NCBI GenBank assembly: GCA_965116415.1
Contig: OZ220693.1
Coordinates: 2,488,806-2,552,805 of the forward strand
Direction of reading: 5' to 3'
Source: Dehalococcoidia bacterium
Lineage (GTDB): Bacteria; Chloroflexota; Dehalococcoidia; Lucifugimonadales; UBA1123
DNA: 64,000 nt
Numbering within the stretch: the stretch's first letter is position 1; every line of letters begins with the position of its first letter. Below are positions 12,794 through 64,000 of this stretch, piece by piece. Below the pieces are notes generated by a model. That model searched no databases. It worked only from the letters and a program-made list of their open reading frames with translations, and had not been told where the DNA came from. Position numbers and translations under genes: made by a program.

Positions 12794-12861
12794 CCACAGC
12801 TTGAATTCCTAACCAGCCAACCATCTGATTCAATTACCCGTGTGTAGATGGTGAAAGTCCT

Positions 12862-29140: not shown

Positions 29141-29220
29141 CGCCTTTTCAACCGCTTACTTGGCGGCGGCGTGAATGCTGGCATTGACACCGGCGTCTCT
29201 CCGATACTCTCTCCCCTGAT

Positions 29221-29394
29221 GGGCTTACAGGGGTAGGTATTCGAGGTTTTCACCCTCACCCCTACCCTCTCCCTGAGGGAGAGGGGGTCGTCGGCTGGAG
29301 TTCGTCCCTGTCTGTTCAAGCATAGCTACCCCTGTAAGCCCCTGATGGGAGAGGGCCAGAGCCTGCCCCGGACTTGATCCGGGGGAGAGAGTGA
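29221..29394. repeat. composite REP/MITE-like cluster (reverse type-A palindrome flanked by a 16-bp inverted repeat, then a type-B hairpin unit)
   Basis: gggcttacaggggtag (29221-29236) is the reverse complement of ctacccctgtaagccc (29326-29341). Core ttcaccctcacccctaccctctccctgagggagaggggg. Then gggagagggccagagcctgccccggacttgatccgggggagag. Confidence 0.85.
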
Positions 29395-29395
29395 T

Positions 29396-30187
29396 CTACA
29401 TTACCGACCGCACCAGACCGCCGTCCACCAGCATCGTCGTGCCGGTGATGTAGCTCGACCGCGACGACGCCAGGAACGCTACCAGGTATGCCAGTTCCCG
29501 CGGCTCACCGATGCGCTTCAATGCCGTCTGTTCCGCCCGCTGCTCCAGTGCGTCTTCAATGGAAATCCCCTGCGTCCGCGCCCGATCCTCCACGTTCTCC
29601 ATCATCCGCTCCGACATGATGCTGCCAGGGCACACGTTGTTGATGAGTATGTTCTCGTGCCCGATGTCGTCGGCCAGGTTCTTCATAAACCCGATGACGC
29701 CCATCCGCGTTGCCGCCGACAGCGCCAGGTTCGGTATCGGCGTATAGACCGTGCTGGCCAGGATGTTGATGATGCGTCCGCCACCCTGTGCCCGCAGATG
29801 CGGCAGCGCCTCCCGTGTCATCCGCGCGAAGAAGAACAGCGAGCGATTCGCCGACACCTGCCACAGCTCTTCGGTGGAGTCCTTGGCATAGGCTTGCGGC
29901 GGCCCGCCGGAATTGTTCACCATGATGTCCAGATGCCCGAAGCGTTCCACCGTGCCTGCCACCAGCTCGGCTATGGTCTCTTCCCTGTCCAGGTCGCCGG
30001 CAAAGGTGAAAATCTCTGCTCCCGTAGCGCTTCGTATCTCGTCCGCCGCCCGTTCCAGGTCTGATGCCGTGCGCGCGCACATCGCCACCCGCACGCCCTC
30101 CTCTGCCAGCACCTCCGAGCACGCGCGTCCCAGACCCTTGCTGGCGCCGCCCACAATCGCTACCTTGCCGTTCAGTTCCAGGTCCAT
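29396..30187 (-). CDS. SDR-family oxidoreductase (FabG-like)
   Basis: GGASKGLG and NNSGG motifs. LAS...PIPNLALSAATRMGVIGFMKNLA. The classical YxxxK is not evident by eye at the expected position (SAATR), suggesting a divergent subfamily. Confidence 0.8.
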   Translation of the reverse strand: MDLELNGKVAIVGGASKGLGRACSEVLAEEGVRVAMCARTASDLERAADEIRSATGAEIFTFAGDLDREETIAELVAGTVERFGHLDIMVNNSGGPPQAYAKDSTEELWQVSANRSLFFFARMTREALPHLRAQGGGRIINILASTVYTPIPNLALSAATRMGVIGFMKNLADDIGHENILINNVCPGSIMSERMMENVEDRARTQGISIEDALEQRAEQTALKRIGEPRELAYLVAFLASSRSSYITGTTMLVDGGLVRSVM

Positions 30188-30307
30188 TGTCAGCCCGGCC
30201 TCCTCAATTGCTGCCGCCGATTATAGCAAGTGAGGCTGGAACCTTTTCAGTGGCCTGGTTGGCACTCAGTCACAATTGGCGCTGGGCTTGTTGTCCTTCA
30301 AAGGTGC

Positions 30308-30360
30308 CTCCCCACCCGTCACGCGGCGGCAACGTACTCTTCGGGGTAGCGGTAGTGTTC
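30308..30360. repeat. 53-bp direct repeat, copy 1 (orphan copy of the TrkH-like gene 3' end)
   Basis: ctccccacccgtcacgcggcggcAacgtactcttcggggtagcggtagtgttc matches 37116-37168 at 52 of 53 positions. The reverse strand reads EHYRYPEEYVAAA-stop. Confidence 0.9.
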
Positions 30361-30401
30361 AAGCGGTATCCCGACCAGCAGGTCGTACTCAATGAGCGAC
30401 G

Positions 30402-31052
30402 TCACGCACGTCCGGTCTCGTGGGCCCAGATTGCGAGCTCGACCCGATTTCGGACATCGAGCTTTGTCATGAGGCTCGTGAGGTGCGTCTTTACGGTGCT
30501 GAGGCTGACGTGAAGCTCGCCGGCTATCTCGGCGTTGGTCAGGCCGTGAGCGACATGAGAGATCACCTCTTCCTCCCGTTCAGACAGGGGTGACGCAGGC
30601 CGAGGAAGCCTCCCCACGCCCGGACCGCGTGCAAAGGTCGAGAGCAGCCTTGCGGTTACGCTGGGGCTGATGAGCGCATCGCCATCGGCTGCGGCCTGAA
30701 TAGCCTGGACCAGCAGTTCCGGACCCGCGTCCTTGAGCACGAACCCTCGCGCACCGGCTCTGAGGGCGTTGTACACGTACTCGTCGAGGTCGTAGGTGGT
30801 GATCATGACTATGGCGAAGGGTGAGTCGGCCTGCGGCCCAGCCAGTATGCGAGTGGCCTCGATACCGTCCATCTCGGGCATGCGGATGTCGAACAGGCAG
30901 ACGTCGGGACGTAACTGACGGGCAAGCGCGACCGCCTGGACCCCGTCTGCGGCTTCGCCCACCACCTCTATGCCGGGCTGGTGGTCCAGGATCACGCGGA
31001 GCCCGGCACGGACGAGTGCCTGGTCGTCGGCGATCAGAACCCGGACTGCCAC
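30402..31052 (-). CDS. NarL/LuxR-family response regulator
   Basis: Receiver motifs VLIADDQ and FDIRMPEMDG. C-terminal HTH LSEREEEVISHVAHGLTNAEIAGELHVSLSTVKTHL. Confidence 0.9.
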   Translation of the reverse strand: MAVRVLIADDQALVRAGLRVILDHQPGIEVVGEAADGVQAVALARQLRPDVCLFDIRMPEMDGIEATRILAGPQADSPFAIVMITTYDLDEYVYNALRAGARGFVLKDAGPELLVQAIQAAADGDALISPSVTARLLSTFARGPGVGRLPRPASPLSEREEEVISHVAHGLTNAEIAGELHVSLSTVKTHLTSLMTKLDVRNRVELAIWAHETGRA

Positions 31053-31055
31053 GTC

Positions 31056-32195
31056 CTACCCCCTGGTCTTGGGTATCTGTGCATCGACCACCCAACGGCC
31101 GGCCCGCCCGCGGCCGGCGCTTAGCTGACCTCCCAGCAGGGACACCCGTTCGGTCATGCCGATGACTCCATAGCCGGAACCGAGACGGGTTCCAGGCCTG
31201 ACCGGGTCTCCGTCGTCCGTCACGGTCAGGTGTACGGCGTCGGCTGACCCATTGATGTGAACTGAGATCCGGCTCGCGCGGCGAGCATACCTCCGGGCGT
31301 TGGTGATGGACTCCTGCACGACCCTGTACAGTCCCGCCTCCAGAGATGCTCCCAGATCATCCAGGTCACCATCCAGATGGACTCGCACCGGTGTCTCTCC
31401 GGCACTGGTGTTGGCGATGCGTTCGATGTCGGCGACGGTGTGATGCGACTCGACCGGAGAACTCGCGTCGCGGAGTACGCCGATGATCTGGCGCATGTCC
31501 TGCAGGCTGCTGGATGCGGTATCTTCGATCGTCGCCAGCGTCTCCAGGACGGCTTCCGGGTTAGATGCTGCCATGGCGCGTCCGGCCTGCGCCTGGATGG
31601 CAATGGCAGTCATTCGATGAGCCAGGGTGTCGTGGAGCTCGCGAGCGATCTGCTGGCGCTCATTGAAGCGCGACTCACGGGCTTTCGCATGGCGCAGCTC
31701 CGCAAGATGCCGGGTGACGGCGCCGGTGATAACCGGGAGGCAAATTACAACTCCCTTGAGGACCATGACCGGGAAACTGTCCGATGGGATGTTCCAGGCG
31801 ATCATCCAGCAGACAGCGGCAACGCCCAGGCCTATCCCAATGTGCCGGCCGGGAGCCCAGCGCACCAGGACATGCGTCAGCACAAGCAGGGCAGCCGGGT
31901 TCACCAGGGTACTCTCGACGTCCACGATGAACATTTCAATGTGCAGCAGGCCATATCCGCCGAAGACGATCATGGTCGCAGGAAGCGGATAGCCGCGCGC
32001 CCACGGAGTCACCAGCGGCGCGATCACGGCCACGCCGGTCACCACGGGACGCCATCCAAGGTCCGCCCGCAGGACCCCCTCCAGCAGACCTGCGACGACC
32101 AGCGCGAGCATGAGAAGCCAGTCCCTCCAGGACTGTTCCGGGGGATCAAGAGACAGGGGCAGCCCCAGCAACCTCTGCAACGCGCCCGCAAACAT
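31056..32195 (-). CDS. membrane sensor histidine kinase (HisKA_3)
   Basis: H-box ELHDTLAH; ATPase motifs VQESITNARRYA and DDGDP. The ORF runs to 32306; I prefer Met38 (MFAGALQRLLG) as the start. The stop lies 3 nt before the regulator gene start. Confidence 0.85.
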   Translation of the reverse strand: MFAGALQRLLGLPLSLDPPEQSWRDWLLMLALVVAGLLEGVLRADLGWRPVVTGVAVIAPLVTPWARGYPLPATMIVFGGYGLLHIEMFIVDVESTLVNPAALLVLTHVLVRWAPGRHIGIGLGVAAVCWMIAWNIPSDSFPVMVLKGVVICLPVITGAVTRHLAELRHAKARESRFNERQQIARELHDTLAHRMTAIAIQAQAGRAMAASNPEAVLETLATIEDTASSSLQDMRQIIGVLRDASSPVESHHTVADIERIANTSAGETPVRVHLDGDLDDLGASLEAGLYRVVQESITNARRYARRASRISVHINGSADAVHLTVTDDGDPVRPGTRLGSGYGVIGMTERVSLLGGQLSAGRGRAGRWVVDAQIPKTRG

Positions 32196-32394
32196 GCCCG
32201 AAGTGTAGCAAACGTAAATTGCGGTCGCATTGACCGAAAGTACGACCTCCGACCTGGCCGATCTGCCAGAGTGAATCGGTACCTTCTCCCGATTCGCGGC
32301 CGTCACGCACGTGTCAACATTGCGTCTGAGTTCGGTCGGCGCAGTCGTGGCCCATGGGAACGGACCCCACTCGCCGGGTGATGGGAGGAGTCCG

Positions 32395-32850
32395 ATGATT
32401 CAGCAGGGACAGAGGCTGTACAGGAGTCGCGAAGAACGGCTCCTGTTCGGAGTTGCGGGAGGCCAGGCCGAGTATTTCGATGTCGATCCCGTCCTGATCC
32501 GTGTGGGGTGGGTTGTGCTGATCCTGGCCACTGCGGGGATCGCCGCAGTGGCCTACATCGTACTGGCGGTAATCACACCCAAGAGCAGGCAACCTGTATC
32601 CAGGGAGGTAGAAACAGTGAACGACAGCTCAAGGGAAGTCTCCGACAGGGCAGTCGGACCTGATCCGGCTGAGGGTTCTTCAAGGCGACATACGGCCAGG
32701 AACGTGTTTGGGGTCGGCCTTATCGTCGTGGGCTCGATCCTACTGCTGCAGAACCTGGAGCTATTTGGCTCGATTCGATGGGACATCGTCTGGCCCGTGG
32801 CCCTGGTGGTCCTGGGCGTGATCGCCCTGCTGCCCTCCATCCGGCGCTGA
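32395..32850 (+). CDS. PspC-domain membrane protein (copy 1)
   Basis: GGGAGGAG precedes the ATG at 32395. RLYRSREERLLFGVAGGQAEYFDVDPVLIRVGWVVL is a canonical PspC domain. It is divergent from the kinase gene. Confidence 0.8.
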   Translation: MIQQGQRLYRSREERLLFGVAGGQAEYFDVDPVLIRVGWVVLILATAGIAAVAYIVLAVITPKSRQPVSREVETVNDSSREVSDRAVGPDPAEGSSRRHTARNVFGVGLIVVGSILLLQNLELFGSIRWDIVWPVALVVLGVIALLPSIRR

Positions 32851-32856
32851 ACGTTC

Positions 32857-35310
32857 ATGAGAGCGCACCTGATAAATCTTCTATCGCGCCTGAGACGCCG
32901 GCGCTTCGTCATCCTGGGAATCGTACTTGTCATTGTGATCGCAGGAGCACTCCTGGTGCTGCGTGTCACCTCAGACCCCGATTCGGTTGTGCTGGAGGAA
33001 GAGCAGCAACTCATTCCGGTGAGACGCGGCGACCTCGTGGACGCGATCAAAGTCACCGGCAGCGTGAGTTTCCCTGACCGGGAGAACATGACCTTCGGGT
33101 CGGATGGTGTTGTCGAGGACGTGCTCGTCAAGGAGGGCCAGCGGGTCTCAGCCGGAGACCTGATTGCCACCTTCGACGCCGAAACCGTGGCAAGGCTGGA
33201 ACGCGAGGTCACTGACGCCCGCGCAGGTGTGCGAGACGCGCGGTCCGAGCTCGATGCCCTCGTCGATCCGCCGGACCTCGTGGTCGTGGGGGCTGAACAC
33301 AGGGTCGCAGTAGCACAGGTCACCCTGGCTGACGCAGTGGAGGCCCTCGACCGAATAACCAGCCCTACCGATCTACAGATTGCGCAGACAGAAGCCAAGG
33401 TCTCCACAGCGCTCCTGGAACTCGAAAGGGCCGAAGAAGCTCTGGCGGAGGGAGTCGCACCCACATCGGAGATTGAACTGGCCCAGGCGAGGATGCGGGT
33501 CACAGACGCCGAGATAGCGCTTGCGGAACTCGCAAACACTCCTGGCCAGTTGGAACTGGTTAAGGCAGAGTCGAGGGTCGCAGATGCCGAGGTGGCGCTT
33601 CGATCCGCCATCGAAGCTCGGGACGACTACATGGATGGTCCCTCGCAGGAAGACCTGCAGGACGCCAGTGACGCGGTTGCGGTAGCTGAAACGGAGCTTG
33701 CAAACTCCCGGTCGGCTCTTGACGTGGCGGAGCAAGAGTGGGCCGCAACGACCGACGAAGCCCAGGCCGCACTCGATTCAGCGTCTGAAACGTACTCAGC
33801 GACTTTCCAGAAGTGGCTCGGAATCCAAACGGACCTCACTTCGGTCGGCCCGGACTACGAGACTGCCTTCGCGGACTTGGGTATCGATCTAGACATCCTG
33901 TTCGCATTGCCGGAACGCTTCAGCGGCCTGGACTACAACGCACCTAATCTGCCCCCTAACGACCCGTCTACGCCCTGGGACGAGACCCAGGTATACGTAT
34001 GGCTGCACTTCTCGAGGTCAGACCTCGTGGCCACATGCGACAGCGGTGACCGTCCCACCTTCGGTGTCTGTATAGAGGAGGAGTTCCGCACCGCAAGCGA
34101 TGCCTACCGGAACGCCATCGGCAGAGTTGCGGAAGTTGAGTACCGGGCGTCCAACGCCATCGCCGCCGCCCATGCCAGGGTTGCAGATGCCGAGACCAGT
34201 CTTCGAGCAGCCTCAGAGAGACGCAGAGAACTCGAAGGCCTACCGGACCCGCTGGTGACCGAGCAGTTGAAAGCCGCGGTCCGTGAGGCTGAGGAGAGCC
34301 TGGGCGGTGCAGGAAGGGACCTGGCGGACCTTGCACAGCCTTCGGACCTTCTCATCAGGGGTCGACAGCACAGAATCGAAGTCGTCAGGGCGACACTGGA
34401 GGATGCCCGTGAAAGGTTCAATGAACTGATTGCGCCCAGTGAATCGTCTGAGATCGCGGACCTGGAAGTGCGGGTCACTCTCGCAAGGGCCAACCTGGAA
34501 GAGGCACGGACCGAGTTGGATGATCTGACGTCCGGAGCTAAGCATCCCGAATACGAGGCCTCCCGGCTTGCGGTCGATGTCGCTCGCGAGACCCTCGCAG
34601 AAGAGAGCGAGAAACTCGCCACCCTTACCGGAGGCCCGGACCCCATTGATCTTGCCCTGATTCAGTCGAAGCTCGATGCTGCAAGGACGCTGCTCTCCGA
34701 GTCCGAGCAGCGACTTGGTGACGCCACCCTGGAGGCCCCCTGGGACGGCTTCGTCTCACGAGTAGAGGCCAGGGCCGGCAGGGAGATCAAGGCCACGGAC
34801 GTGGTCGCCGTACTGGTGGATACCAGCGTTGTGGAGATAGACGGTGACGTGGATGAGGTGGACGTGCTGAGAGTACTGATCGACGCAATCGCGGAGGTGC
34901 GCATGGACGCCCTCCCTGACCGGACAATCGACGGTACGGTCTCATTCGTGGGTGCGGAGGCAAACTCGGAACAGGGCGTCGTCAGCTATCCCGTCCGGGT
35001 CCGGATCGATCTCCCGCAGGAGCTGAAGGCCCCCGAGGGGCTCAGCGCGGCAGCCTCCATCACAATCAGCGAGCACAGAGACGTCCTTCTGCTCCCGGCC
35101 AACGCGATCCGGGGCAGCTTCACACGCCCAACCGTCAACGTCATGGTGGACGGCGAAGTGGTCGAGACGCCGGTCACCCTGGGCGAGAGCGACGACTTCT
35201 GGACGGCAATCACCGACGGCGTTCAGGAGGGAGACATGGTCGTCGCAGAGTCCGACGTGTCGATTCCTGAACTGGCCGGGGCCCATGTAGAGGCTGGGTC
35301 ACAGCCGTGA
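32857..35310 (+). CDS. HlyD/MacA-like periplasmic adaptor with an unusually long coiled-coil (817 aa)
   Basis: N-terminal TM, VTGSVSF...FGSDGVVEDVLVKEGQRVSAGDLIATFD, about 450 aa of heptad-rich helical sequence, then a C-terminal beta-barrel-like region. Confidence 0.75.
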   Translation: MRAHLINLLSRLRRRRFVILGIVLVIVIAGALLVLRVTSDPDSVVLEEEQQLIPVRRGDLVDAIKVTGSVSFPDRENMTFGSDGVVEDVLVKEGQRVSAGDLIATFDAETVARLEREVTDARAGVRDARSELDALVDPPDLVVVGAEHRVAVAQVTLADAVEALDRITSPTDLQIAQTEAKVSTALLELERAEEALAEGVAPTSEIELAQARMRVTDAEIALAELANTPGQLELVKAESRVADAEVALRSAIEARDDYMDGPSQEDLQDASDAVAVAETELANSRSALDVAEQEWAATTDEAQAALDSASETYSATFQKWLGIQTDLTSVGPDYETAFADLGIDLDILFALPERFSGLDYNAPNLPPNDPSTPWDETQVYVWLHFSRSDLVATCDSGDRPTFGVCIEEEFRTASDAYRNAIGRVAEVEYRASNAIAAAHARVADAETSLRAASERRRELEGLPDPLVTEQLKAAVREAEESLGGAGRDLADLAQPSDLLIRGRQHRIEVVRATLEDARERFNELIAPSESSEIADLEVRVTLARANLEEARTELDDLTSGAKHPEYEASRLAVDVARETLAEESEKLATLTGGPDPIDLALIQSKLDAARTLLSESEQRLGDATLEAPWDGFVSRVEARAGREIKATDVVAVLVDTSVVEIDGDVDEVDVLRVLIDAIAEVRMDALPDRTIDGTVSFVGAEANSEQGVVSYPVRVRIDLPQELKAPEGLSAAASITISEHRDVLLLPANAIRGSFTRPTVNVMVDGEVVETPVTLGESDDFWTAITDGVQEGDMVVAESDVSIPELAGAHVEAGSQP

Positions 35311-35324
35311 TGGTGCTCTAGGAC

Positions 35325-36599
35325 GTGAACCCTCTGGACATACTCCTGACTGCGCTGACGTCCCTGGCGTCCAACAAGATGCGTGCCGGGCTGACGCTGC
35401 TGGGCATCGTGATAGGGGTCACGTCCGTCATTGTCCTCATGTCTATGGGACGGGGCGTACAGAAGTCCATAACATCGAGCATCGAGTCATTGGGCAGCAA
35501 CCTGCTGGTTGTCACACCTGGGTCTCCTGTGGCCGATGACGACGAGTTCGCGTTCTTCGGCGCCGCGACCTTTGGTGGCGAAGGCGAGAACCTCACAATG
35601 GATGACGCCTACGCGCTGCTCGACCCCCTGTATGCGCCGTCCATTGCCGCCGTAGCGCCCCAGCAGAGTACCTGGGGGCATGTCGTCGCCCGTGGCAGAG
35701 AGATCGATGCGCCGGTGCTCGGGGTTACGGCCGAGTACCGTGATGTCAGAAACTCCAGACTCACGTATGGGAACTTCATCTCGCACGGACACGTGCTCGA
35801 TAACTCCACGGTAGCTGTGCTGGGACCTGAAGTCTCGGACGACCTCTTCGGTCCCAGAAACCCTGTTGGCCAGCCGGTGCGTATCCGCGGTAGGGAGTTC
35901 ACCGTGATAGGCGTCCTGGAAGACGAGGGCTCTGGCTTCTTCAGTGTAGGGAACGATAAGGTCCTGGTACCCCTTACCACACTCAGCCACAGGATGGTCT
36001 CCGAGGGCCCGGAAAGTGACGAGATCCTGGTCAATTCGATAAATGTACAGGCGGCCAGCTCGGATCTGGTCGAAAGCGCAAAGTCGGAAATTGCGAGTGT
36101 CCTGAGATTCCGACATCGCCTGTCGGGACCGGACGACTTCACGATCAACGATCAGCAGCAGGCCCTTCAGGCTGTCCAGAGTGTCACCGCGGCCATCGTG
36201 GTGTTCCTCGGGGTCATTGCGGGCATAAGCCTTCTGGTGGGCGGCATCGGCATAATGAACATCATGCTCGTGACAGTTACCGAGCGGACTCGGGAGATCG
36301 GAATACGCAAGGCAATGGGGGCAAAACGTCGCGACGTGCTGTTCCAGTTCGTGACCGAGGCTGCGCTGCTCAGCCTGGGCGGAGGCCTGTTTGGGCTGGC
36401 GATAGGCTTTGTGATAGCCGGCGTCATTGACGGCTCGCACCTGTTCGGCGAAGAGTCGGACCCGGTTACCATGGCGGTGACCGGAGACGTGATCGCGCTG
36501 GCGCTCGGGGTGTCGATAATGGTCGGCCTCTTCTTCGGGATCTACCCGGCGATGCGGGCCGCCAGGCTTCATCCCATCGAAGCGCTGCGTTACGAGTGA
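35325..36599 (+). CDS. ABC transporter permease, MacB/FtsX type
   Basis: N-terminal TM, a periplasmic domain of about 230 aa, and a C-terminal FtsX region with TERTREIGIRKAMGAKRRDV. Confidence 0.9.
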   Translation: MNPLDILLTALTSLASNKMRAGLTLLGIVIGVTSVIVLMSMGRGVQKSITSSIESLGSNLLVVTPGSPVADDDEFAFFGAATFGGEGENLTMDDAYALLDPLYAPSIAAVAPQQSTWGHVVARGREIDAPVLGVTAEYRDVRNSRLTYGNFISHGHVLDNSTVAVLGPEVSDDLFGPRNPVGQPVRIRGREFTVIGVLEDEGSGFFSVGNDKVLVPLTTLSHRMVSEGPESDEILVNSINVQAASSDLVESAKSEIASVLRFRHRLSGPDDFTINDQQQALQAVQSVTAAIVVFLGVIAGISLLVGGIGIMNIMLVTVTERTREIGIRKAMGAKRRDVLFQFVTEAALLSLGGGLFGLAIGFVIAGVIDGSHLFGEESDPVTMAVTGDVIALALGVSIMVGLFFGIYPAMRAARLHPIEALRYE

Positions 36600-36655
36600 C
36601 ACTGCCCTTAGCGGACTGGATGGCTTGCCCAGAGCCGACTGGTGGAAGGAATGTG

Positions 36656-37102
36656 ATGGTCCAGCAGAGACGGAGACTGCACAGAAGTCGTGACGACCGG
36701 TTCCTCTTTGGTATGGCGGGAGGGCTGGCCGAGTTCTTTGATATTGACCCGGTGCTGGTCAGGGTGGGCTGGGCGCTGCTTACCGTGGCCACGGTGGGAA
36801 TCGCCGCGCTGGCGTACCTGGTACTGGTGATAGTCACTCCCGACGGCAGCCGGACCGAATCCGCGCCGGTCGACGATCAGTCTGACGAAAGTTCCAGTAG
36901 CATAGTCCATGGTGACACTGACGAAGTACTGCCGAAGAGGCACGTTGTCAGGAACCTGTTCGGGGTTGGCTTTATCATCGTCGGCATGATCGTGCTGCTC
37001 GGGAACCTGGGAGTGTTTGACTCGATCCGATGGGACATTGTCTGGCCCGTGGTCATAGTGATCCTGGGGGTGACCATCCTGCTTCCCTCCATCCGGAGGT
37101 AA
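36656..37102 (+). CDS. PspC-domain membrane protein (copy 2, roughly 60% identical by eye to copy 1)
   Basis: RLHRSRDDRFLFGMAGGLAEFFDIDPVLVRVGWALL. The C-terminus IRWDIVWPVVIVILGVTILLPSIRR parallels copy 1. Confidence 0.8.
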   Translation: MVQQRRRLHRSRDDRFLFGMAGGLAEFFDIDPVLVRVGWALLTVATVGIAALAYLVLVIVTPDGSRTESAPVDDQSDESSSSIVHGDTDEVLPKRHVVRNLFGVGFIIVGMIVLLGNLGVFDSIRWDIVWPVVIVILGVTILLPSIRR

Positions 37103-37115
37103 ACAGCCTGGAAAT

Positions 37116-37168
37116 CTCCCCACCCGTCACGCGGCGGCTACGTACTCTTCGGGGTAGCGGTAGTGTTC
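37116..37168. repeat. 53-bp direct repeat, copy 2 (functional 3' end plus 11 nt of 3' flank of the TrkH-like gene)
   Basis: Matches 30308-30360 at 52 of 53 positions. The single difference is synonymous (GTA versus GTT, Val). Confidence 0.9.
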
Positions 37169-38002
37169 CACCTCAGGTTGAGGTGCATGCGCCATTGCCA
37201 GGCCGATGGTCAGGGGGCCCAGCCTTCCGACCAGCATTGTCAGCATCAGAAGGCACTGTCCGGGGATCGAAAGCTGAGAAGTTGCCCCCGAGGTCAGTCC
37301 TACGGTGTCGAAGGCGGACACTCCCTCGAAGAGCAGGTCGAGCGAGTCCAGTCCGCTGTCCGTGATGCTCAGGCATATGAGCACCCCGAAGATCGCCGCC
37401 ACGGCGACCGTTCCGATCATCAGCGCGCTCATGACCTGACGGTCCGATATCTCCCGTCCGAAGGCCGAGGCGTGCCTACTGCCCTTGATGGCCGACCATA
37501 TCCCTATGAACATCACGGCCAGTGTGTTGATCTTCACGCCTCCCGCAGCAGAAGCTGAAGCCCCTCCCACGAGCATCGATCGGATCGTCCACAGCTTGGC
37601 CGCGTGACCAGTCTCGGAGTGGTCGATCAGCGAGAATCCGCCGCTCCTGGCGCTTACTGGCTCGAAAGCTGCCGTGGCGACCTTCTGGGTGGTGGGCAGG
37701 TCTCCCTGCGTACCCGGATTGCTGTACTCCAGCACCAGGAACGTGCCGATGCTGATAGGCAGGACCAGTGCAGTGACCGCGACAACCAGCTTGGTCGTCA
37801 GGCTGAAGCGTCCGAACCTGCGCCTTGTGACCACGTCCGACAGCACCAGGGCGACGAAAGCGTAGATGACTATCAGGGCAGGCGACAGGCCCCTGCGCGT
37901 CCTGCGGCCGTTCCCGGCCGAGAACGCCGGGCGCTCCAGGTCAGCCCTCCTATGTAGTCTAACCAGCCTGTCCCCCGGCTTTGGTGTCCAGCTGATTTCC
38001 AC
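37127..38002 (-). pseudogene. TrkH/KtrB-family K+ transporter membrane subunit, apparently N-terminally truncated (291 aa)
   Basis: ARSGGFSLID and GGASASAAGGVKINTLAV selectivity-filter-like loops are present. The length is about 60% of typical family members and the first 40 aa are non-hydrophobic. Confidence 0.5.
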
Positions 38003-38368: not shown

Positions 38369-41300
38369 ATGAATCTCCGCAGATTTGCTGCCCCAAGAAC
38401 CGCCACGGGTGCAGCTGTATTGCTGGGTGCTGTCACCGCTTCATTGGTGACTGTCGGGATCATCTCCCACAGTCTGGCGACGGCTGACGACTGTTCGACT
38501 GGATCTGCCGTGTCAGACCAGACTAACAATCCCGGACTGGTATCGGACTGTGAGATCCTCCTCACAGTCCGGAACACATTGGCAGGGAGCGCAACTCTCA
38601 ACTGGTCGTCGGGAACTCCCATCCACGACTGGGAAGGAGTTACAGTCGCAGGAACACCCTTGCGGATCACGGGGCTGTCACTCGGTGGCAAGCAGCTTAG
38701 TGGTTCAATACCCTCGGAGTTGGGCCGTCTTTCCAACCTAAAATGGCTCTACCTCAACGGCAATGAGCTGAGCGGGCCGATTCCGCCGGAGCTGGGAGAC
38801 CTTTCCAACCTAATATGGCTAGACCTCGGCCACAACGACTTGAGCAGTGAGATACCTCCAGAGTTGGGCCGTCTCTCCAACCTAACCGAGCTGGCCCTCT
38901 GGGCCAACCGATTGAACGGCGCCATACCGGCTGAGTTGAGCGATCTCACCAGACTGACGTCGCTGGGCCTCAGCGAAAACGATCTAAGCAGCCCGATTCC
39001 ACCGGAGTTGGGCAGCCTCTCCAACCTGGAATTGCTAAACCTCAGCAGCAACAGTCTGACCGGCCCGATACCGGCTGAATTGGGCGGCTTCTCCAACCTG
39101 ACCGTGCTCGATCTCGGCCGCAACCGGCTGAATGGCCCGATACCCCCTGAAGTGGGCAGTCTTTCCAAATTGACTTGGCTGGACCTCAGAGACAACGAGT
39201 TGACCACAGCGATACCGGTTGAGGTGGGCGGACTCACCAACCTGAATTGGCTGGACCTCAGAGACAACAAGCTGAGCGGACCGATTCCGCCAGACCTTGG
39301 CAACCTGTCCAACTTGGAGTGGCTGTACCTCGGAGGCAACCGGCTGAGTGGCTCAATTCGAACCGAGTTGGGCAGTCTTTCCTACGTGACGTTGCTGGGA
39401 CTCGAAGGCAACCGGCTGACCGGGCCGATTCCACCGGAGTTGGGCGGACTCTCCAACCTGACGGTACTGTACCTCAATGCCAATGAATTAAGCGGACCGA
39501 TTCCGCCAGAGTTGAGCGGCCTCTCCCATCTGACTGGGCTATACCTTGGCAACAACCAGTTGACCGGCCCAATTCCTGCGGAACTGGGTGAGCTCACCAA
39601 CCTGGTGTTGCTGGACCTTTGGGTCAACCAACTAAGTGGGCCGATACCGCCGGAACTGAGCGGCCTCTCCAACCTGATTGAGCTGGACCTCAGATATAAC
39701 CTGCTGAGTGGACTGATTCCGCCGGAGCTAGCCGGCCTCCCAAATCTGGAACGGCTTTACCTCATGGGTAACCAGTTCAGCGGTTGCATCCCCGTGGGTC
39801 TGCGGTCCGTTGATGAGAACGATCTCGCTGAAACTGGCACGCCATTCTGCGACCTGTTGCTCAGCAGACTGACCATCGCACCGGGATCATTGAGCCCTGC
39901 CTTCGATTCCTACGTGAGCTACTACATCGCGGAGGTTGGAAGTGCGTCTCAGTTCACCGTGAGTCCTGTCAACGACCACAACGCCGCCATCCGATTCCTG
40001 GATGAAGACTTCGTCGAAGTGTCGGATGCGAATGACTCACTGGCGGGCTACCAGGTGAACCTCGGCGACGGTACTACTACTGTCACTGTCAGGGTCATCT
40101 CACCGGACGGATCAGGGACGCACACCTATGTCATTCAGGCCAGCCGGAAGCCGGCGACTCTAAATGCCTGTGCCACCGGCGGTGCGGTGTCCGATCCGGT
40201 TAGTGATCCTGGCCTGGTGTCCGACTGCGTTGCGCTGCTGTCGGCACACGATACGCTGGAGGGAAGTTCAATCTTCGACTGGTCAGAAGAAACTCCCATC
40301 CGAGGTTGGGATGGTGTCACGCTAGGAGGGACTCCTCAGCGCGTCACGGAGTTGCGTCTTGCCTCCAGACAGTTGAGTGGTACGGCCCCTCCGGAGTGGG
40401 GGAGCATCTCCAGCTTGACGTGGCTGTCCCTCGTTGGCAATGAGTTGAGCGGACCAGTACCACCTGAGTGGGGCAGTCTCTCCAAACTGGAGTGGCTGAA
40501 TCTAGCCGGTAATAAACTGACCGGTCCGATACCGCCCGAGCTGAGCAACCTCTCCAGCCTGACGGTCGCGTACCTCAACGGCAATGAACTAGACGGGCCG
40601 ATACCTCCAGAGTTGGGCAGTCTCCCCCACCTGGAAAGGTTGTACCTCAGCCATAACGAACTGAGCGGGGAGATACCTGCTGAGTTGGGTAATATTTCCA
40701 GCCTGGTGGGGATGAGCCTCTATGGCAACCATCTGAGTGGCCCAATACCGCCAGAGTTGGGGGACCTCTCCAACCTCCGGTGGCTGGTACTCGGCGGCAA
40801 CGAGCTGAGCGGCCGAATACCGCCGAAACTGGGGGATCTCTCCAACCTCGAGGTGCTGGACCTCAGCGGCAACGAGTTGAGTGGTCCAATGCCACCTGAG
40901 TTGGGCAGTCTCTCCAACCTGGAGGGGTCGGGCGAGTCGACCAACGTGACGGGGCTGAATCTCAGCCGTAACAGGTTGAGCGGACAGATACCACCGGAAT
41001 TGGGGAATCTCTCCAATCTGAAGGGACTGAACCTCAGAGACAACGAGTTGAGTGGTCCGGTGCCGCCGGAACTCGGCAGTCTCTCCAACCTGATACGGTT
41101 GGACCTCGACGGCAACGAACTGGATGGCACCATACCATCGGAGTGGGGCAGTCTGTCCAACCTAGAGGAGCTGAACCTCGATCGGAACCAGTTTAGCGGG
41201 GAGCTTCCAGACACGTTGACCTCCCTAACCGTGCTGGAGTGGATGGTGTTCTACAACAACCTGGGGATCTGCGCTCCTGTCAATGACGAATTCCAAGCAT

Positions 41301-42445
41301 GGCTCCAGAGCATACACACTGTGCGTGGCAGCAGCTGCGCACCGAGGGACTCGCAGGAAGACCGGGCCACGCTGGCCAAGCTTTACAACGCAACGGCAGG
41401 TAGTAATTGGGAAAATAGTTCCAACTGGCTGACCGACCGTCCCATGAGGGAGTGGTACGGCGTCACCAATGACGCCCACGGGAGAGTCATCGGACTGTAC
41501 CTTGCCCATAACCAGATGAGCGGGCCTCTACCGCTCGAGTTGGGCGGGCTCTCCAACCTGAAGTGGATGGAACTTAGAGTCAACAAGCTGAGCGGGCCTA
41601 TACCTTCCGAGATGGGAGGTCTCTCCAACCTGGAATGGCTGCTTCTCGGCGGCAACGAGCTGACCGGTCCAATACCCCCTGAGTTGGGCAGTCTCTCCAA
41701 CCTGGAGTGGATGTACCTCTACAACAACCGGTTGAGTGGAGAGATCCCGTCAGAACTTGGGAACCTGACGAATCTGGACAGTATGCACCTCTCGTGGAAC
41801 AGGCTTACCGGACAGGTGCCGGCTTCGCTGGGCAACCTTGCCAATCTGACCAGTCTGTCACTAAAGGGCAACCGTTTGGATGGACAGATACCGGCCTCGC
41901 TGAGTAGCCTCGCGAGACTGAGGTGGTTGAACCTTAGTCGAAACGATTTTACAGGCTGCATCCCGACAGGTCTGCAGGACGTGATTTCCAACGATCTTAC
42001 AAGTCTGCGCCTGCCGTTCTGCTCCATGCCGACGACAGCCATGAGCGCCGCTCCCACACGTAGCCCAGTCAGAATCGACTCGCCAATCCCTGTGACGACA
42101 TGGTTCAGCGAACCGGTCAACGGATTTACAGTCGATGATGTCATCGTGGTCAACGGCTCAGCAGCCAACTTTGTCGGTAGTGATGGCACCACGGTGTTCA
42201 CCTTTGTCGTGACGCCAACCGGCATCGGTGACGTGACAGTAGACATTCCGTCCGGAGTCGCGACCGCCGGAACAGGATACCGAAACTCACCCGCGCATCT
42301 ATCCCTCGGCATCCCATACGACGACGATCGGGACGGGGAAATCAGCCGGGACGAGTTAGTCACGGCCATCAACGATTACCTGTTCAATAACCTCCTGACC
42401 AGGGATCAGGTCATAGCTCTGATAAGTCTCTATCTCTTCGAGTGA
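38369..42445 (+). CDS. secreted 1358-aa leucine-rich-repeat protein (three Cys-capped plant-type LRR blocks, about 34 repeats; cadherin-like beta-sandwich; Ig-like domain; EF-hand/dockerin-like tail)
   Basis: Signal peptide. 24-aa LRR consensus LxxLxLxxNxLSGPIPPELGxLSNL. N-caps of type C..(18-20 aa)..C..LL...L.....NW....P...W.GV. C-caps NxF[ST]GC[IV]P...[FY]C. Tail DDDRDGEISRDE...ISLYLFE. Confidence 0.9.
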   Translation: MNLRRFAAPRTATGAAVLLGAVTASLVTVGIISHSLATADDCSTGSAVSDQTNNPGLVSDCEILLTVRNTLAGSATLNWSSGTPIHDWEGVTVAGTPLRITGLSLGGKQLSGSIPSELGRLSNLKWLYLNGNELSGPIPPELGDLSNLIWLDLGHNDLSSEIPPELGRLSNLTELALWANRLNGAIPAELSDLTRLTSLGLSENDLSSPIPPELGSLSNLELLNLSSNSLTGPIPAELGGFSNLTVLDLGRNRLNGPIPPEVGSLSKLTWLDLRDNELTTAIPVEVGGLTNLNWLDLRDNKLSGPIPPDLGNLSNLEWLYLGGNRLSGSIRTELGSLSYVTLLGLEGNRLTGPIPPELGGLSNLTVLYLNANELSGPIPPELSGLSHLTGLYLGNNQLTGPIPAELGELTNLVLLDLWVNQLSGPIPPELSGLSNLIELDLRYNLLSGLIPPELAGLPNLERLYLMGNQFSGCIPVGLRSVDENDLAETGTPFCDLLLSRLTIAPGSLSPAFDSYVSYYIAEVGSASQFTVSPVNDHNAAIRFLDEDFVEVSDANDSLAGYQVNLGDGTTTVTVRVISPDGSGTHTYVIQASRKPATLNACATGGAVSDPVSDPGLVSDCVALLSAHDTLEGSSIFDWSEETPIRGWDGVTLGGTPQRVTELRLASRQLSGTAPPEWGSISSLTWLSLVGNELSGPVPPEWGSLSKLEWLNLAGNKLTGPIPPELSNLSSLTVAYLNGNELDGPIPPELGSLPHLERLYLSHNELSGEIPAELGNISSLVGMSLYGNHLSGPIPPELGDLSNLRWLVLGGNELSGRIPPKLGDLSNLEVLDLSGNELSGPMPPELGSLSNLEGSGESTNVTGLNLSRNRLSGQIPPELGNLSNLKGLNLRDNELSGPVPPELGSLSNLIRLDLDGNELDGTIPSEWGSLSNLEELNLDRNQFSGELPDTLTSLTVLEWMVFYNNLGICAPVNDEFQAWLQSIHTVRGSSCAPRDSQEDRATLAKLYNATAGSNWENSSNWLTDRPMREWYGVTNDAHGRVIGLYLAHNQMSGPLPLELGGLSNLKWMELRVNKLSGPIPSEMGGLSNLEWLLLGGNELTGPIPPELGSLSNLEWMYLYNNRLSGEIPSELGNLTNLDSMHLSWNRLTGQVPASLGNLANLTSLSLKGNRLDGQIPASLSSLARLRWLNLSRNDFTGCIPTGLQDVISNDLTSLRLPFCSMPTTAMSAAPTRSPVRIDSPIPVTTWFSEPVNGFTVDDVIVVNGSAANFVGSDGTTVFTFVVTPTGIGDVTVDIPSGVATAGTGYRNSPAHLSLGIPYDDDRDGEISRDELVTAINDYLFNNLLTRDQVIALISLYLFE

Positions 42446-44869: not shown

Positions 44870-45063
44870 GGCACTGGAAGCACGCTCCATAGTTACTGTG
44901 AGTGGCGGGAGAATCAGGATTTCCAGACCCCATGCGCTCTGAACTGAACCCATTGATGGTCGGGCTCTGATTAAGGCCGCTCAAGACCCCTTGGAAAGCG
45001 CCTTAGCATGTAGGAGCAGTGCCACGCCTCCTTGGATGCTGTACCAATCTAGTAGGCGAACAT

Positions 45064-45102
45064 TTCACCCTCACCCTAACCCTCTCCCTCAAGGGAGAGG
45101 GG
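45064..45102. repeat. REP type-A unit, reverse orientation
   Basis: ttcaccctcaccctaaccctctccctcaagggagagggg. Confidence 0.85.
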
Positions 45103-45145
45103 ATTGTCGGTCCCGGAATGCGACACCGACCAAACTGATACAGGC

Positions 45146-46361
45146 GTAACCGTCCCATAGTCGGTGTGGAAAGAAGAGGGCGGGGAAACTTGGTAAGGTT
45201 TCGGTATCCAAAGAGACCAAGACCAAGAGACCCCGCCGATGCCCAGAGTAAGATTCACACTTCCCCAGGTCAAGCTCTTTCCAGATACCAGGCCGTCATT
45301 CTGTCCATACTGTGGCAGCGTGTACCTGAGTCGACACGGACTGGTCACAAAACGCATCAAAGACCTCTATGTCAGTGAGGTCACGGTGCAAAGGTACCGA
45401 TGTTACGACTGTGATTGCACGTTCAGACATTATCCTCAGGGAGTTGACCGTCACGATCAGAGTCACAGACTCAGAGGGTTGGCGGCATTGAGTTGGGCTC
45501 TGGGTCTGTCGCTTCGTTCGGTGAGTCATCTGCTGAGCGCGCTGGGATGTAAGTTGTCGAGGATGAGTGTATGGCGAGACGTTCAGGAGTCGGGATCAAA
45601 CGCACTGGATGGGTGGTTGAGTCCGCTGCGGCAGAGTCGTGTGAGGCTGATGGGAGCCGATGAGACTGTGATCAAGGTGCGGGGTAAGCAGACGGTGGTC
45701 GGGTTCGTCACAGATGCTGAGAGTGGACAGCTTGTGGGAATGGACGTGTTGGTTGACAGGGACAGTGACGGCTTCGTCAGGTGGCTTGAGAGGTATGTAA
45801 ATGGGTTCGGAGTGGAGTCGATAGTGACCGACGACCTCAACACCTACAAGCCAGTGGTCGAACATCTCGGAGTGGACCACCAGGTATGTATCGCACACGT
45901 CAGGAAGTGGGTGTGGAATCGACTCAGAGAGATAGGTGGGTGGGACTGGTACAAGTCGAGGATATGGCTTCTGATGACCGAACTGCCCAGGGGAGGCGGT
46001 CGAGAACTGCTCGACATGGAGCATCGTGTTCGCGGACACCCGAAGCTTCACCGTCTGGTGGTGGAGTTATGTGATAAGTGGCGGTCTCTGACATGTCACC
46101 AGCGAGTGAGAGGGATGCCACAGACCAACAACTGCACAGAGCGAACGATAGGAAGGAGCAAGGTCAGGTACAGGACAGTCAGAGGGTACAAGAGCGAGAA
46201 GGGAATGATGAATGGATTGGGACTCACACAGTGGGTGTGGAGCGGTCAGGAGGGACTCGATCTCAGCGAGCTGATCGCTGCCTAGATACAAGTACGAAAC
46301 CTGGTCGCCGATGACTCTTTCAAGCCACTCCCAAATCTCCCACCGACTATGGGACGGTTAC
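45146..46361 (+). mobile_element. insertion sequence (1216 bp) with perfect 21-bp terminal inverted repeats and a single DDE transposase
   Basis: IRL gtaaccgtcccatagtcggtg (45146-45166) is the reverse complement of 46341-46361. No target-site duplication was recognisable. Confidence 0.8.
45239..46285 (+). CDS. DDE transposase with an N-terminal zinc ribbon (ISL3-like or IS6-like; family uncertain)
   Basis: CPYCGS...RYRCYDCDCTF zinc ribbon. MGADETVIKVRGK, VTDDLNTYKP and TNNCTERTIGRSKVRYRTVRGY motifs (D, D, E regions). Confidence 0.8.
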   Translation: MPRVRFTLPQVKLFPDTRPSFCPYCGSVYLSRHGLVTKRIKDLYVSEVTVQRYRCYDCDCTFRHYPQGVDRHDQSHRLRGLAALSWALGLSLRSVSHLLSALGCKLSRMSVWRDVQESGSNALDGWLSPLRQSRVRLMGADETVIKVRGKQTVVGFVTDAESGQLVGMDVLVDRDSDGFVRWLERYVNGFGVESIVTDDLNTYKPVVEHLGVDHQVCIAHVRKWVWNRLREIGGWDWYKSRIWLLMTELPRGGGRELLDMEHRVRGHPKLHRLVVELCDKWRSLTCHQRVRGMPQTNNCTERTIGRSKVRYRTVRGYKSEKGMMNGLGLTQWVWSGQEGLDLSELIAA

Positions 46362-46365
46362 CTAG

Positions 46366-46405
46366 CCCCCTCTCCCTTGACGGGAGAGGTCTGGGGTGAG
46401 GGTGA
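46366..46405. repeat. REP type-A unit, forward orientation
   Basis: ccccctctcccttgacgggagaggtctggggtgagggtga, lying 3 nt from the SMP-30 gene stop codon. Confidence 0.85.
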
Positions 46406-46408
46406 CGA

Positions 46409-51881: not shown

Positions 51882-51946
51882 CCCCTTCTTCCTCAATGGG
51901 AGAGGGCTGGAGCCTGCCCCGTACTTGATACGGGGGTGAGGGTGAA
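51882..51946. repeat. REP type-B unit between the two permease genes
   Basis: ccccttcttcctcaatgggagagggctggagcctgccccgtacttgatacgggggtgagggtgaa. Confidence 0.8.
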
Positions 51947-53265: not shown

Positions 53266-53285
53266 CTAATCTGCGAGTTCGATAG

Positions 53286-53418
53286 GCCCCCTCTCCCTCA
53301 GAACCTGCCCCGTACTTGATCCCGGGGGCTCACAGGGGTAGGTATAGATGTGCAGACCGGTTCGAATACCAATCAAGGGCCCCCTCTCCCTAAGGGAGAG
53401 GGCTGGGGTGAGGGTGAA
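53286..53418. repeat. REP cluster (type-B unit plus C module, spacer, type-A unit)
   Basis: gccccctctccctcagaacctgccccgtacttgatcccgggggctcacaggggtaggtat ... ccccctctccctaagggagagggctggggtgagggtgaa. Confidence 0.85.
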
Positions 53419-53454
53419 TCTACGAGCCCCCTCTTGCTGGAACGCCGGCAGCCC

Positions 53455-59736: not shown

Positions 59737-59744
59737 TTCAACAG

Positions 59745-59786
59745 CTCCCTCTCCCTTGACGGGAGAGGGTTGGGGTGAGGGTGAAA
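59745..59786. repeat. REP type-A unit, forward
   Basis: ctccctctcccttgacgggagagggttggggtgagggtgaaaa, ending immediately before the ATG of the next gene. Confidence 0.85.
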
Positions 59787-61191: not shown

Positions 61192-61206
61192 GGGCAACAT
61201 AAAATG

Positions 61207-61273
61207 CCCCCTCTCCCTTGAGGGAGAGGGCTGGGGTGAGGGTGAAAACCTCGAATACCTACCCCTGTCAGCC
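61207..61273. repeat. REP type-A unit plus C module, forward
   Basis: ccccctctcccttgagggagagggctggggtgagggtgaaaacctcgaatacctacccctgtcagccc. It is close to the reverse complement of 29221-29287. Confidence 0.9.
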
Positions 61274-63950: not shown

Positions 63951-64000
63951 CCCCCTCTCCCTCAGGGCCTGCCCCGGACTTGATCCGGGGGAGAGGGTTG
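63951..64000. repeat. REP type-B unit, truncated by the window end
   Basis: ccccctctccctcagggcctgccccggacttgatccgggggagagggttg. Confidence 0.8.

Follow-up and report, generated by a model that had tools for sequence, protein, structure and literature searches.

A 53-bp duplication of the trkH gene end around a stress-sensing and export cluster in a Dehalococcoidia genome, and its possible origin by homology-anchored recombination

In the 64,000-nucleotide stretch of contig OZ220693.1 analyzed here (the window), a six-gene stress-sensing and export cluster lies between two direct repeats of 53 bp, one of them the working end of a TrkH-like gene (trkH) and the other an orphan of that end. We propose, with a probability of about 40%, that the repeat pair does not border a self-mobile element but is the scar of a recombination, anchored by homology and not site-specific, in which the resident trkH end was displaced.

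The repeat pair and the trkH end

The 53-mer, CTCCCCACCCGTCACGCGGCGGC[A/T]ACGTACTCTTCGGGGTAGCGGTAGTGTTC, was found by reads of the sequence and by a repeat finder at 30308-30360 (copy 1) and 37116-37168 (copy 2), 6808 nt apart, both on the minus strand and identical at 52 of 53 positions, in agreement with the positions and the match originally predicted. No third copy was detected in the 64 kb by a search tolerating 3 mismatches, and matches to the 53-mer were obtained in none of 100 dinucleotide-preserving shuffles of the window. Copy 2 is the functional trkH 3' end: read on the minus strand it consists of EHYRYPEEYVAAA, the stop codon and the 11 following nucleotides of the TrkH-like ORF 37127-38002, and the coding end, stop and 11 nt attributed to it beforehand are all present. 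Copy 1 duplicates these last 13 codons, the stop codon and the 11 nt as a non-coding orphan, within no ORF, inside the 214-bp spacer that separates the start of an SDR gene (30187) from the stop of the response-regulator gene (30402), 41 nt from the latter. The sole difference between the copies, GTT versus GTA, leaves a valine codon in both, so the description of copy 1 as an orphan past the regulator gene with a synonymous change was accurate. The borders of the repeat are sharp. Copy 1 matches the trkH ends of four relatives (L001, L002, L005 and L012) at 92-96%; it is 3-7 positions away from every other lineage and only 1 of 53 away from copy 2, so the event involved either this lineage alone or strains very close to one another.

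The same one-base difference bears on an assembly artefact of a strain-mixed metagenome, which we hold to be scarcely credible. The window proteins are found only in one metagenome-derived record (3,755,442 bp), several related records are labelled MAGs, and their contig names resemble those of metagenome assemblies. However, copies that differ by one base are not a collapsed k-mer overlap, and a simple two-strain mixture would contain neither junction of copy 1. Moreover, all six genes between the repeats are intact ORFs collinear with those of relatives and, if the assembly is a long-read one as the contig names of the relatives suggest, single reads would cover the whole 6.8 kb.

The trkH gene that ends in copy 2 (37127..38002, minus strand) has the real 3' end that was predicted, but it is not an intact gene. 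Pfam searches and comparison with relatives show an in-frame internal deletion of residues 55-241: residues 1-54 of the 481-aa protein of the relatives are joined in frame to residues 242-481, with the loss of 187 internal residues. The deletion junction, at about 37840-37849, lies between two copies of the 11-nt repeat TCTGGTGCTGT. Similarity to the trkH loci of relatives stops at 37116-37120, and five distinct flanks (L012/L005, L001, L002, copy 1 and copy 2) begin within about 4 nt of a common point, some 11 nt past the trkH stop. The segments downstream of trkH elsewhere hold a retropepsin-like ORF (L012, L005) or a DUF2779 segment (L002).

The gene cluster, its relatives and the SDR spacer

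Six genes fill the 6.7 kb between the repeats, and their domain content assigns them to a putative stress sensing and export unit. On the minus strand are a NarL/LuxR-type response regulator (30402..31052; Pfam Response_reg and GerE, NCBIfam NarL-like but below the equivalog cut-off) and a HisKA_3 sensor histidine kinase, LiaS/NarX-like by Pfam and NCBIfam (31056..32306). The plus strand carries a first PspC-domain membrane protein with a LiaF-type transmembrane region by Pfam (32311..32850), an 817-aa membrane-fusion (periplasmic adaptor) protein of HlyD/YknX/MacA type (32857..35310; Pfam, with TIGR01730 above cut-off) that shares 66-82% identity with its orthologs, a MacB-type ABC permease with MacB_PCD and FtsX domains by Pfam (35325..36599), and a second Pfam-assigned PspC-domain membrane protein (36596..37102). 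The 3' end of the first PspC gene is an old paralog of the second (79%, repeat family D10), and both paralogs are also found in L006 and L014.

The tripartite ABC exporter set is incomplete in the window, where the fusion protein and the permease are present and the ATPase gene is deleted. At 35307..35326 (plus strand) about 6 codons of this gene are left, with an in-frame stop, and this scar is fused to the start of the permease at a CGT microhomology; the same position in L006 and L014 holds an intact ATPase gene of 239-254 aa. The permease lacks a nucleotide-binding domain, and its match to the E. coli MacB model (648 positions) covers only positions 258-646. The exporter would be unable to function unless an ATPase were borrowed. 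The gene liaF is deleted as well, while L006 and L014 keep both the ATPase gene and a LiaF-like gene. A 13-bp remnant (37103..37115), made of the spacer between the second PspC gene and liaF and the start of liaF, marks the point at which the cluster meets the trkH flank; homology to L006 extends to 37112. The losses in trkH, of the ATPase gene and of liaF are microhomology deletions, and three lesions here besides the repeat pair have short-homology junctions, which indicates that illegitimate recombination is active in this region.

The cluster is an ordinary chromosomal unit of these sponge-associated Dehalococcoidia. Its orthologs occupy four other neighborhoods (L003, L004, L006 and L014), with the stop codons of the end genes as borders and no flanking repeat at either one; the original prediction would have been contradicted by relatives that all carry the module at the same site, and they do not all do so. 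In L005, a sister lineage, the cluster lies downstream of an intact trkH, with a 737-bp spacer between them that is homologous to the native trkH neighbor in L012; its far border is unassembled. The identity of the cluster is mosaic, the nearest relative being L014, L005 or L003 depending on the part, which implies frequent homologous exchange among these lineages. Breakpoints precise to the gene end are general in the lineage, and one also occurs after the regulator stop, where the repeat is absent.

On the other side of copy 1, the SDR block (29383..30258, minus strand) covers the gene (29396-30187) with the 71 nt upstream of it and shares 92-94% identity with L007 and L015. The gene stands outside its conserved MFS-SDR-TPR context, the MFS transporter and TPR protein neighbors being missing, and is itself a translocated single-gene block. 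From this block to copy 1 runs a 49-bp filler (30259..30307) with no homolog in the fetched loci or in the rest of the window, and from copy 1 to the regulator stop a 41-bp filler (30361..30401) for which no homolog was found either; the search for a source of both pieces covered the window and every fetched locus. The relatives share 14-18 nt after the regulator stop that are missing from the window. The 214-bp spacer is a patchwork of 71, 49, 53 and 41 bp segments.

This patchwork suggests a different origin for copy 1, as templated filler: template switching during break repair or replication restart would have copied 53 nt of the nearby trkH end into the junction between the SDR gene and the cluster, the 49-bp and 41-bp pieces possibly being copied from elsewhere. 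Such an origin, which we judge rather unlikely, fits a spacer whose segments have different or unknown origins, a relocated single-gene SDR block and several short-homology deletions within the same few kilobases; it needs no empty site, and it is compatible with a trkH-cluster linkage held in common with L005. It does not account, however, for the precise end of the copied piece at the pre-existing junction of cluster and trkH flank (37115|37116), unless the template was cut short by a break there, and neither the window nor the fetched loci offers a source for the two other pieces. To our knowledge, templated fillers of tens of bases taken from kilobases away are poorly documented in bacteria.

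Site-specific integration or a homology scar

The original prediction had read the 53-mers as attL and attR of an integrative island whose insertion regenerated the 3' end of its target gene. The topology on which it relied, one working gene end and one orphan, stands, and the direct repeats with copy 2 as the trkH terminus are of the kind expected of a site-specific integrative island; the recombinase, tRNA, inverted repeat and compositional shift of attL/attR integration are lacking, and this interpretation is only weakly supported. The absence of an integrase was correctly noted, all six ORFs between the repeats being assigned to other Pfam families. The 14 ORFs scanned in the two flanks, up to about 8 kb away, include no recombinase, and the nearest mobility gene is an IS66-like transposase ORF at 45239-46285. 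No tRNA, terminal inverted repeat or RNA structure was found either. The proposed check of composition gave a typical module: its tetranucleotide distance is equalled or exceeded by 42% of equal-sized windows, and the GC3 of the cluster is similar to that of the flanks. A transposon with a target-site duplication was considered separately and rejected, no transposase being encoded between the repeats and no inverted repeat being present at the ends. We know of no transposase-made duplication that approaches 53 bp in length.

The island could nevertheless have lost its integrase, as a cis-mobilizable circular element integrated at the trkH 3' end whose recombinase was later deleted or acted in trans. 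Islands classically leave a direct repeat that restores the 3' end of their target gene, the five flanks start within about 4 nt of one point past the trkH stop, the almost exact deletion of whole genes in this lineage makes the loss of an integrase plausible, and 15 Dehalococcoides ssrA islands without an integration module have been suggested to be cis-mobilizable (PMC3146451). Against this, the recombinase is absent from both the 6.8 kb and its surroundings, and the cluster sits in its four other neighborhoods without repeats. The 53-mer is not a dispersed sequence, which would have told against the original prediction; its core is single-copy in the chromosomes of two complete relatives (OZ247432.1 and OZ220685.1) despite their differing trkH flanks, and it is absent from the viral and JGI contigs searched. 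No degenerate copy was detected at the far border of the trkH-downstream segments of L012, L002 and L005. Conservation of synonymous sites at the trkH terminus is ordinary, 26 of 227 windows being equally or more conserved, and breakpoints precise to the gene end are general in the lineage, also where there is no repeat. Neither the same element with the same borders nor another element at the same att site was found in L003, L004, L006, L014, the two complete relatives or the viral and JGI contigs. The typical composition and the missing empty site weigh in the same direction, and we regard an island of this kind as distinctly unlikely. The window, the 94 loci and the viral contigs, the material covered for a cognate autonomous element or an integrase with that site, showed none.

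The empty site had been predicted as an SDR gene adjoining the trkH end. This adjacency is absent from the 86 SDR-bearing loci (83 from SDR searches, L007-L009 and L015-L094, with extra SDR-family genes in L001, L008 and L009) and from six trkH-bearing loci (the trkH-side loci checked being L001, L002, L005 and L010-L013), a sample that contains no truly close strains.

A wider form of site-specific exchange, which we consider very unlikely, would make the trkH 3' end, to about 11 nt past the stop, an attachment hot spot of sponge-associated Dehalococcoidia where integrase-less cassettes are swapped in trans. The cassettes would be the stress/export cluster of the window, the retropepsin-like ORF of L012 and L005 and the DUF2779 segment of L002, with the window as the sole instance where both att copies are still present. 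If so, integrase-less cassettes of an uncultured symbiont lineage would have a new attachment site in trkH.

A working gene end and an orphan are also expected where incoming DNA brings a gene end of its own and recombines with the resident one, and the homology-anchored recombination that we prefer would proceed in this manner. The duplication with its exact borders, the lack of mobility genes, the other locations of the cluster, the linkage in L005 and the deletion junctions are observed; that a donor molecule existed, which way the event ran and by what pathway are what we infer here. The cluster already lies downstream of trkH in L005, and incoming DNA made of the cluster and an adjoining trkH end would have paired with the resident trkH by homology, with no dedicated attachment site. 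Two routes could be followed: (i) a single crossover of a circularized fragment inside the common 53 bp; or (ii) homologous pairing in trkH at one end, with the other end joined illegitimately 14 codons from the stop. By both routes the incoming trkH end would be joined to the gene and the resident end displaced by 6.8 kb as an orphan, after which the region would decay further through short-homology deletions. In agreement with such a scar, the duplicated segment forms direct repeats around the insert and equals the common homology, and L005 offers a linked source composed of the cluster, the 737-bp spacer and an intact trkH.

Several points count against the homology scar. The pre-insertion arrangement, with the SDR gene or the 49-bp filler adjoining trkH, was found in no relative, and neither was a donor whose cluster directly adjoins trkH, with no 737-bp spacer in between. 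The SDR gene is itself out of its usual place, and the two fillers and the 53-mer together could come from a repair process. The window cluster is on average nearer to L014, which shows no trkH linkage within the 21-kb locus fetched, than to L005. Homologous recombination over 53 bp alone is inefficient. One-sided illegitimate integration occurs in E. coli at about 3e-10 (PMC3240628).

A tandem duplication of the cluster plus trkH end, followed by the loss of most of the first copy, is the least parsimonious of the rival models and highly improbable. Tandem duplications that later decay are a common event and the region has frequent deletions, but the model requires two independent deletions whose ends coincide to the nucleotide at the outer border of the 53-mer. 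Moreover, no other remnant of a first cluster copy is present and the 49-bp filler is unlike the cluster.

Significance and comparison with known systems

The homology-scar reading would make the window a natural example of a short gene-end duplication that arises and persists without mobile-element machinery, of little wider importance. It calls for caution, since a repeat that regenerates a gene end is not always the mark of an integrative island. More generally, the loci compared show that genomes of sponge-associated Dehalococcoidia are extensively shuffled in blocks of gene size, broken at gene ends, and that they lose genes by short-homology deletion.

Among known systems, the closest in topology are Campbell-type crossover, homology-facilitated illegitimate recombination and the 3'-end displacement of Rhs, CDI and T6SS loci, in which the resident end likewise becomes a direct-repeat orphan beyond the insert and no recombinase is necessary. 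In E. coli, 109-950 bp of the lacZ end became duplicated through a single crossover with circular DNA that carried part of it (PMC3240628), whereas only 53 bp, a shorter segment, are duplicated here. The orphaned 3' regions seen at natural Rhs and T6SS loci have been suggested to arise by displacement (PMC5361080); unlike the toxin/immunity genes of Rhs, CDI and T6SS loci, the cargo in the window is a housekeeping-type sensor/exporter cluster. In the ssrA-specific islands of Dehalococcoides, from the same class, variable DNA downstream of a single-copy gene is also bordered by direct repeats of that gene's 3' end, and about half of the islands are without integrase (PMC3146451). Their own features are 20-bp repeats of the tmRNA gene that recur many times within a genome and from strain to strain, an association with a conserved DsiB serine-recombinase module, and low-GC foreign DNA. 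In the window, by contrast, the target is protein-coding, the repeat occurs once beyond the gene and in this genome only, no recombinase was found, and the composition is native. The cargo resembles LiaFSR/PspC-type two-component systems joined to a MacAB/YknXYZ-type exporter, with its HisKA_3 kinase, NarL-type regulator, PspC proteins with LiaF-type transmembrane regions, fusion protein and MacB-type permease, and it differs from these systems in the deletion of the ATPase gene and of liaF.

A duplicated trkH end and a truncated trkH gene

The pair of 53-mers at 30308-30360 and 37116-37168 was confirmed in the sequence itself and with a repeat finder, with one mismatch between the copies, and a search allowing up to 3 mismatches detected only these two copies in the 64-kb window (0 matches in 100 shuffles of the window sequence). 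As the original prediction had stated, copy 2 (37116-37168) is the real end of the TrkH-like gene, comprising on the minus strand its 13 terminal codons (EHYRYPEEYVAAA), the stop codon and 11 nt. Copy 1 (30308-30360) is indeed an orphan, located outside any ORF, 41 nt past the response-regulator stop and 120 nt upstream of the SDR start, and the sole difference between the copies is synonymous (GTT vs GTA, both valine). A dispersed multi-copy repeat, one outcome named as fatal to the prediction, was rejected, the 27-nt repeat core being single-copy in the two complete chromosomes containing it, which are those of the closest complete relatives (OZ247432.1 and OZ220685.1, both 'MAG: Dehalococcoidia bacterium'). 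No match to this core was found in JGI metagenomes and viral contigs. An RNA element or terminator was also rejected (folding z-scores of 0.5-1.8, no terminator, no Rfam or tRNA match), as was the inclusion in the duplication of D10, a 156-nt match (79%) abutting copy 2, which reflects an ancient PspC paralogy present too in L006 and L014, two of the fetched loci of relatives (L numbers). The 53-mer repeat is real and lineage-specific. It can hardly be credited to misassembly, since there is a one-base difference between the copies, and in a simple two-strain mixture the junctions of copy 1 would not arise. Copy 1 differs from copy 2 at 1 of 53 positions and from other lineages at 3-7, so that the event was recent and took place within the lineage or between very close strains.

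Compared with the 481-aa protein of relatives, the TrkH-like ORF (37127-38002, minus strand) has residues 1-54 joined in frame to residues 242-481. This deletion (residues 55-241) has its junction at about 37840-37849, between two 11-nt direct repeats, TCTGGTGCTGT, which intact genes carry at equivalent positions of TrkH's internal repeats. The resulting allele, a singleton in the protein collection, is an open 291-aa 'half' TrkH, in which the native N-terminus is retained together with the final two of the four pore repeats, the other two being missing. Intact genes, 82-92% identical, are present in L001/L011, L002/L010, L005 and L012/L013. Upstream of trkH, synteny is partly preserved: the CMD gene is conserved (90-94% match), and where the window has its LRR gene, between trkH and the CMD gene, L012 also has an LRR gene, of 377 aa, other genes occupying this position in L001, L002 and L005. 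Downstream, the homology of relatives to the window ends at 37116-37120 at every locus. Natively, trkH adjoins a small retropepsin-like ORF, after which comes a luciferase-like monooxygenase (order in L012 and L013). This 0.7-kb ORF (Asp_protease_2; L012 3010-3700) is also present in L005 (4488-5172), and L002 harbours before the same monooxygenase a different 2.9-kb segment with a DUF2779 gene (11460-14330). Given the sharp borders at both ends, the trkH-monooxygenase interval looks like a small replaceable cassette site. No second copy of the trkH end was detected in the trkH loci of relatives, whether by BLAST, by repeat search or, at the distal borders of the alternative segments, by sensitive local alignment; a 20/24 match inside the Uma2 gene of L012, considered as a degenerate att copy, was rejected as chance.

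An apparently decaying export cluster and its relatives

On the basis of domain content, the segment between the repeats encodes a NarL-type response regulator (30402-31052) and a HisKA_3 kinase (31056-32306), both on the minus strand, a first PspC-domain protein (32311-32850), an 817-aa membrane-fusion protein (32857-35310), a MacB-type permease (35325-36599) and a second PspC-domain protein, PspC2 (36596-37102). The label 'envelope-stress/export' given to this module is reasonable, and none of its six genes encodes a recombinase, in agreement with the absence of an integrase noted previously. Together with the trkH deletion, two gene losses in the cluster make up three lesions that the original prediction had not noticed. 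An ABC ATPase gene, located in relatives between the fusion-protein and permease genes and retained in L006 and L014, is almost exactly deleted in the window (35307-35326), where about six codons are left and the junction lies at a CGT microhomology. A different internal deletion, leaving a 43-aa remnant, is found in L003 (12436-12567) and L004 (between 8371 and 8496). The exporter ATPase gene was lost in two independent events, one in the window and one in L003/L004, which suggests either a relaxed selection on the exporter or the use of a paralogous ATPase. The LiaF-like gene found 3' of PspC2 in L006 and L014 is also gone from the window, its remnant being about 10 nt of upstream spacer (37103-37112). 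It is truncated at three different points, at 37103-37115 in the window, about 4438-4487 in L005 and about 14350-14400 in L003, each of which lost the gene separately. An 11-nt match of the 13-bp junction filler to L002 was judged coincidental, the PspC2-liaF spacer of L006 explaining this filler better. Since the cluster is deprived of its ATPase and liaF, and trkH of two of its four pore repeats, the segment as a whole gives the impression of ongoing decay and not of an adaptive island under maintenance.

The module does not occupy the same site in all relatives. Orthologous clusters, whose fusion proteins are 78-82% identical, have other surroundings: between a Uma2 gene and an M16 peptidase in L003/L004, between plsY and liaF, a second two-component system and cas genes in L006, and between a transglutaminase-like gene and liaF in L014. 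DNA homology between the window and these clusters extends from the stop codon of the regulator (30404) to that of PspC2 (about 37100), and no repeat was detected at either of their borders. L005 has the cluster 3' of an intact trkH, with a ~70-nt liaF remnant and a 737-bp spacer homologous to the native trkH neighbour in L012 separating the two; the L005 contig, from sample ERZ25069412, stops inside PspC1, so the far border of the cluster is unseen. The window cluster resembles those of relatives in mosaic fashion: over most of its length L014 is the closest (81-93%), and locally L005 or L003 is closer. The L014 cluster is flanked by two short integrase-like ORFs (3025-3627, 200 aa; 17508-17867, 119 aa), which have no counterpart in the window, and it adjoins an IS66-like element.

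The SDR gene and the genomic surroundings

The original prediction expected an empty site with the SDR gene adjoining trkH. Such a site was not found, trkH and the 53-mer being absent from all 86 SDR-bearing loci. At 90% identity the window SDR falls into a cluster of 184 members. Its homology to L007 and L015 (92-94% nt) is confined to the gene and 62-71 nt upstream, and it lacks both the MFS transporter that lies upstream in L007 and L015 (with an extra gene in between in L007) and the TPR neighbour adjacent to the SDR in L007, L009, L016 and L017. On these grounds the window SDR (29383-30258) is itself a relocated single-gene block. Its similarity to the sponge-metagenome loci L007/L015 exceeds that of the genes around it to any relative, and it may represent a recent gene-sized transfer.

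The window encodes giant repeat proteins of eukaryote-like type, as is typical of sponge symbionts: a 1358-aa LRR protein (38369-42445), a 2467-aa CARDB/fn3/LRR/subtilase protein (15102-22505) and an ankyrin protein (12862-14334). The Aplysina aerophoba sponge metagenome MKWU01 (PMC5649159) is the source of close relatives of the SDR. The window genome is that of a sponge-associated Dehalococcoidia.

A REP-like intergenic repeat family (CCCTCTCCC...GGGAGAGGG...GGGGTGAGGGTGA) is dispersed across the window (29162-29394, 45052-45104, 46364-46418, 51896-51945, 53285-53430, 59743-59797, 61204-61263 and 63949-64000) and is also present in L001, L007, L012 and L015, often at synteny breaks. An IS66-like transposase element (45146-46361, ORF 45239-46285) shares 87% identity with L014 1770-2982. 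The L012 contig stops at both ends inside the terminal 55 nt of this element, which is therefore present in multiple copies and interrupts assemblies of this lineage. In several relatives, genes of the Uma2 family (putative endonuclease) are repeatedly found beside the points where synteny near trkH, the cluster and the SDR breaks (L001 8779-9528 and 17964-18746, L002 8949-9677, L003 6916-7662, L004 2848-3594, L007 4820-5572 and L012 4962-5648).

Origin of the duplication

The proposed attL/attR island stands as regards direct repeats regenerating a gene end, but of the defining features of an island the repeat alone is present: recombinase, empty site and recurring borders are lacking, no tRNA or RNA target was found at the repeat and no terminal inverted repeats at the cluster ends, and the comparison of module and flanks revealed no atypical composition, so that a foreign origin was rejected. 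Conservation of the trkH terminus at synonymous sites, as an att signature, was not significant (26 of 227 windows at least as conserved). A residual hint of an island is that five different flanks start within about 4 nt of one point, 11 nt past the trkH stop. This hint is weakened because gene-end breakpoints are general here (flanks diverge 0-18 nt past the regulator stop, where there is no repeat), because a second copy is missing from two complete genomes whose trkH flanks differ, and because no degenerate att copies occur at the distal borders of the alternative trkH-downstream segments. An att-flanked island having lost its integrase, for which the closest analogue in the class is provided by the Dehalococcoides ssrA islands (PMC3146451), is therefore improbable. 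A tandem duplication followed by decay is even harder to accept and was rejected as unparsimonious, as two deletions must end at the same base. A repair or template-switch event that put a 53-nt templated filler into a patchwork junction is the most probable of the rivals but still unlikely; in its favour, the 49-bp (30259-30307) and 41-bp (30361-30401) pieces on either side of copy 1 are without explanation.

Our best reading, put forward tentatively with a probability of roughly 0.4, is a recombination scar in which cluster-bearing DNA including its own trkH end would have recombined into the resident trkH end. This could have occurred either through a circular molecule and a single crossover inside the 53 bp, or through homologous pairing in trkH and an illegitimate join 14 codons before the stop. 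By both routes the outer repeat border would mark the divergence of two flanks, the incoming one (the cluster junction) and the resident one, so that no coincidence is required, and this topology is the simplest one giving two copies with identical borders. We infer the direction of the event, its donor and its pathway from the structure and its comparative context, which are directly observed. The two 53-bp direct repeats could in turn drive a rare RecA-dependent loss of the 6.8 kb. Precedents exist for the recombination scar, since the lacZ end was duplicated over 109-950 bp by single crossovers (PMC3240628) and orphaned 3' regions at Rhs and T6SS loci have been attributed to displacement (PMC5361080); the repeat pair is one case of this already known kind of recombination footprint.
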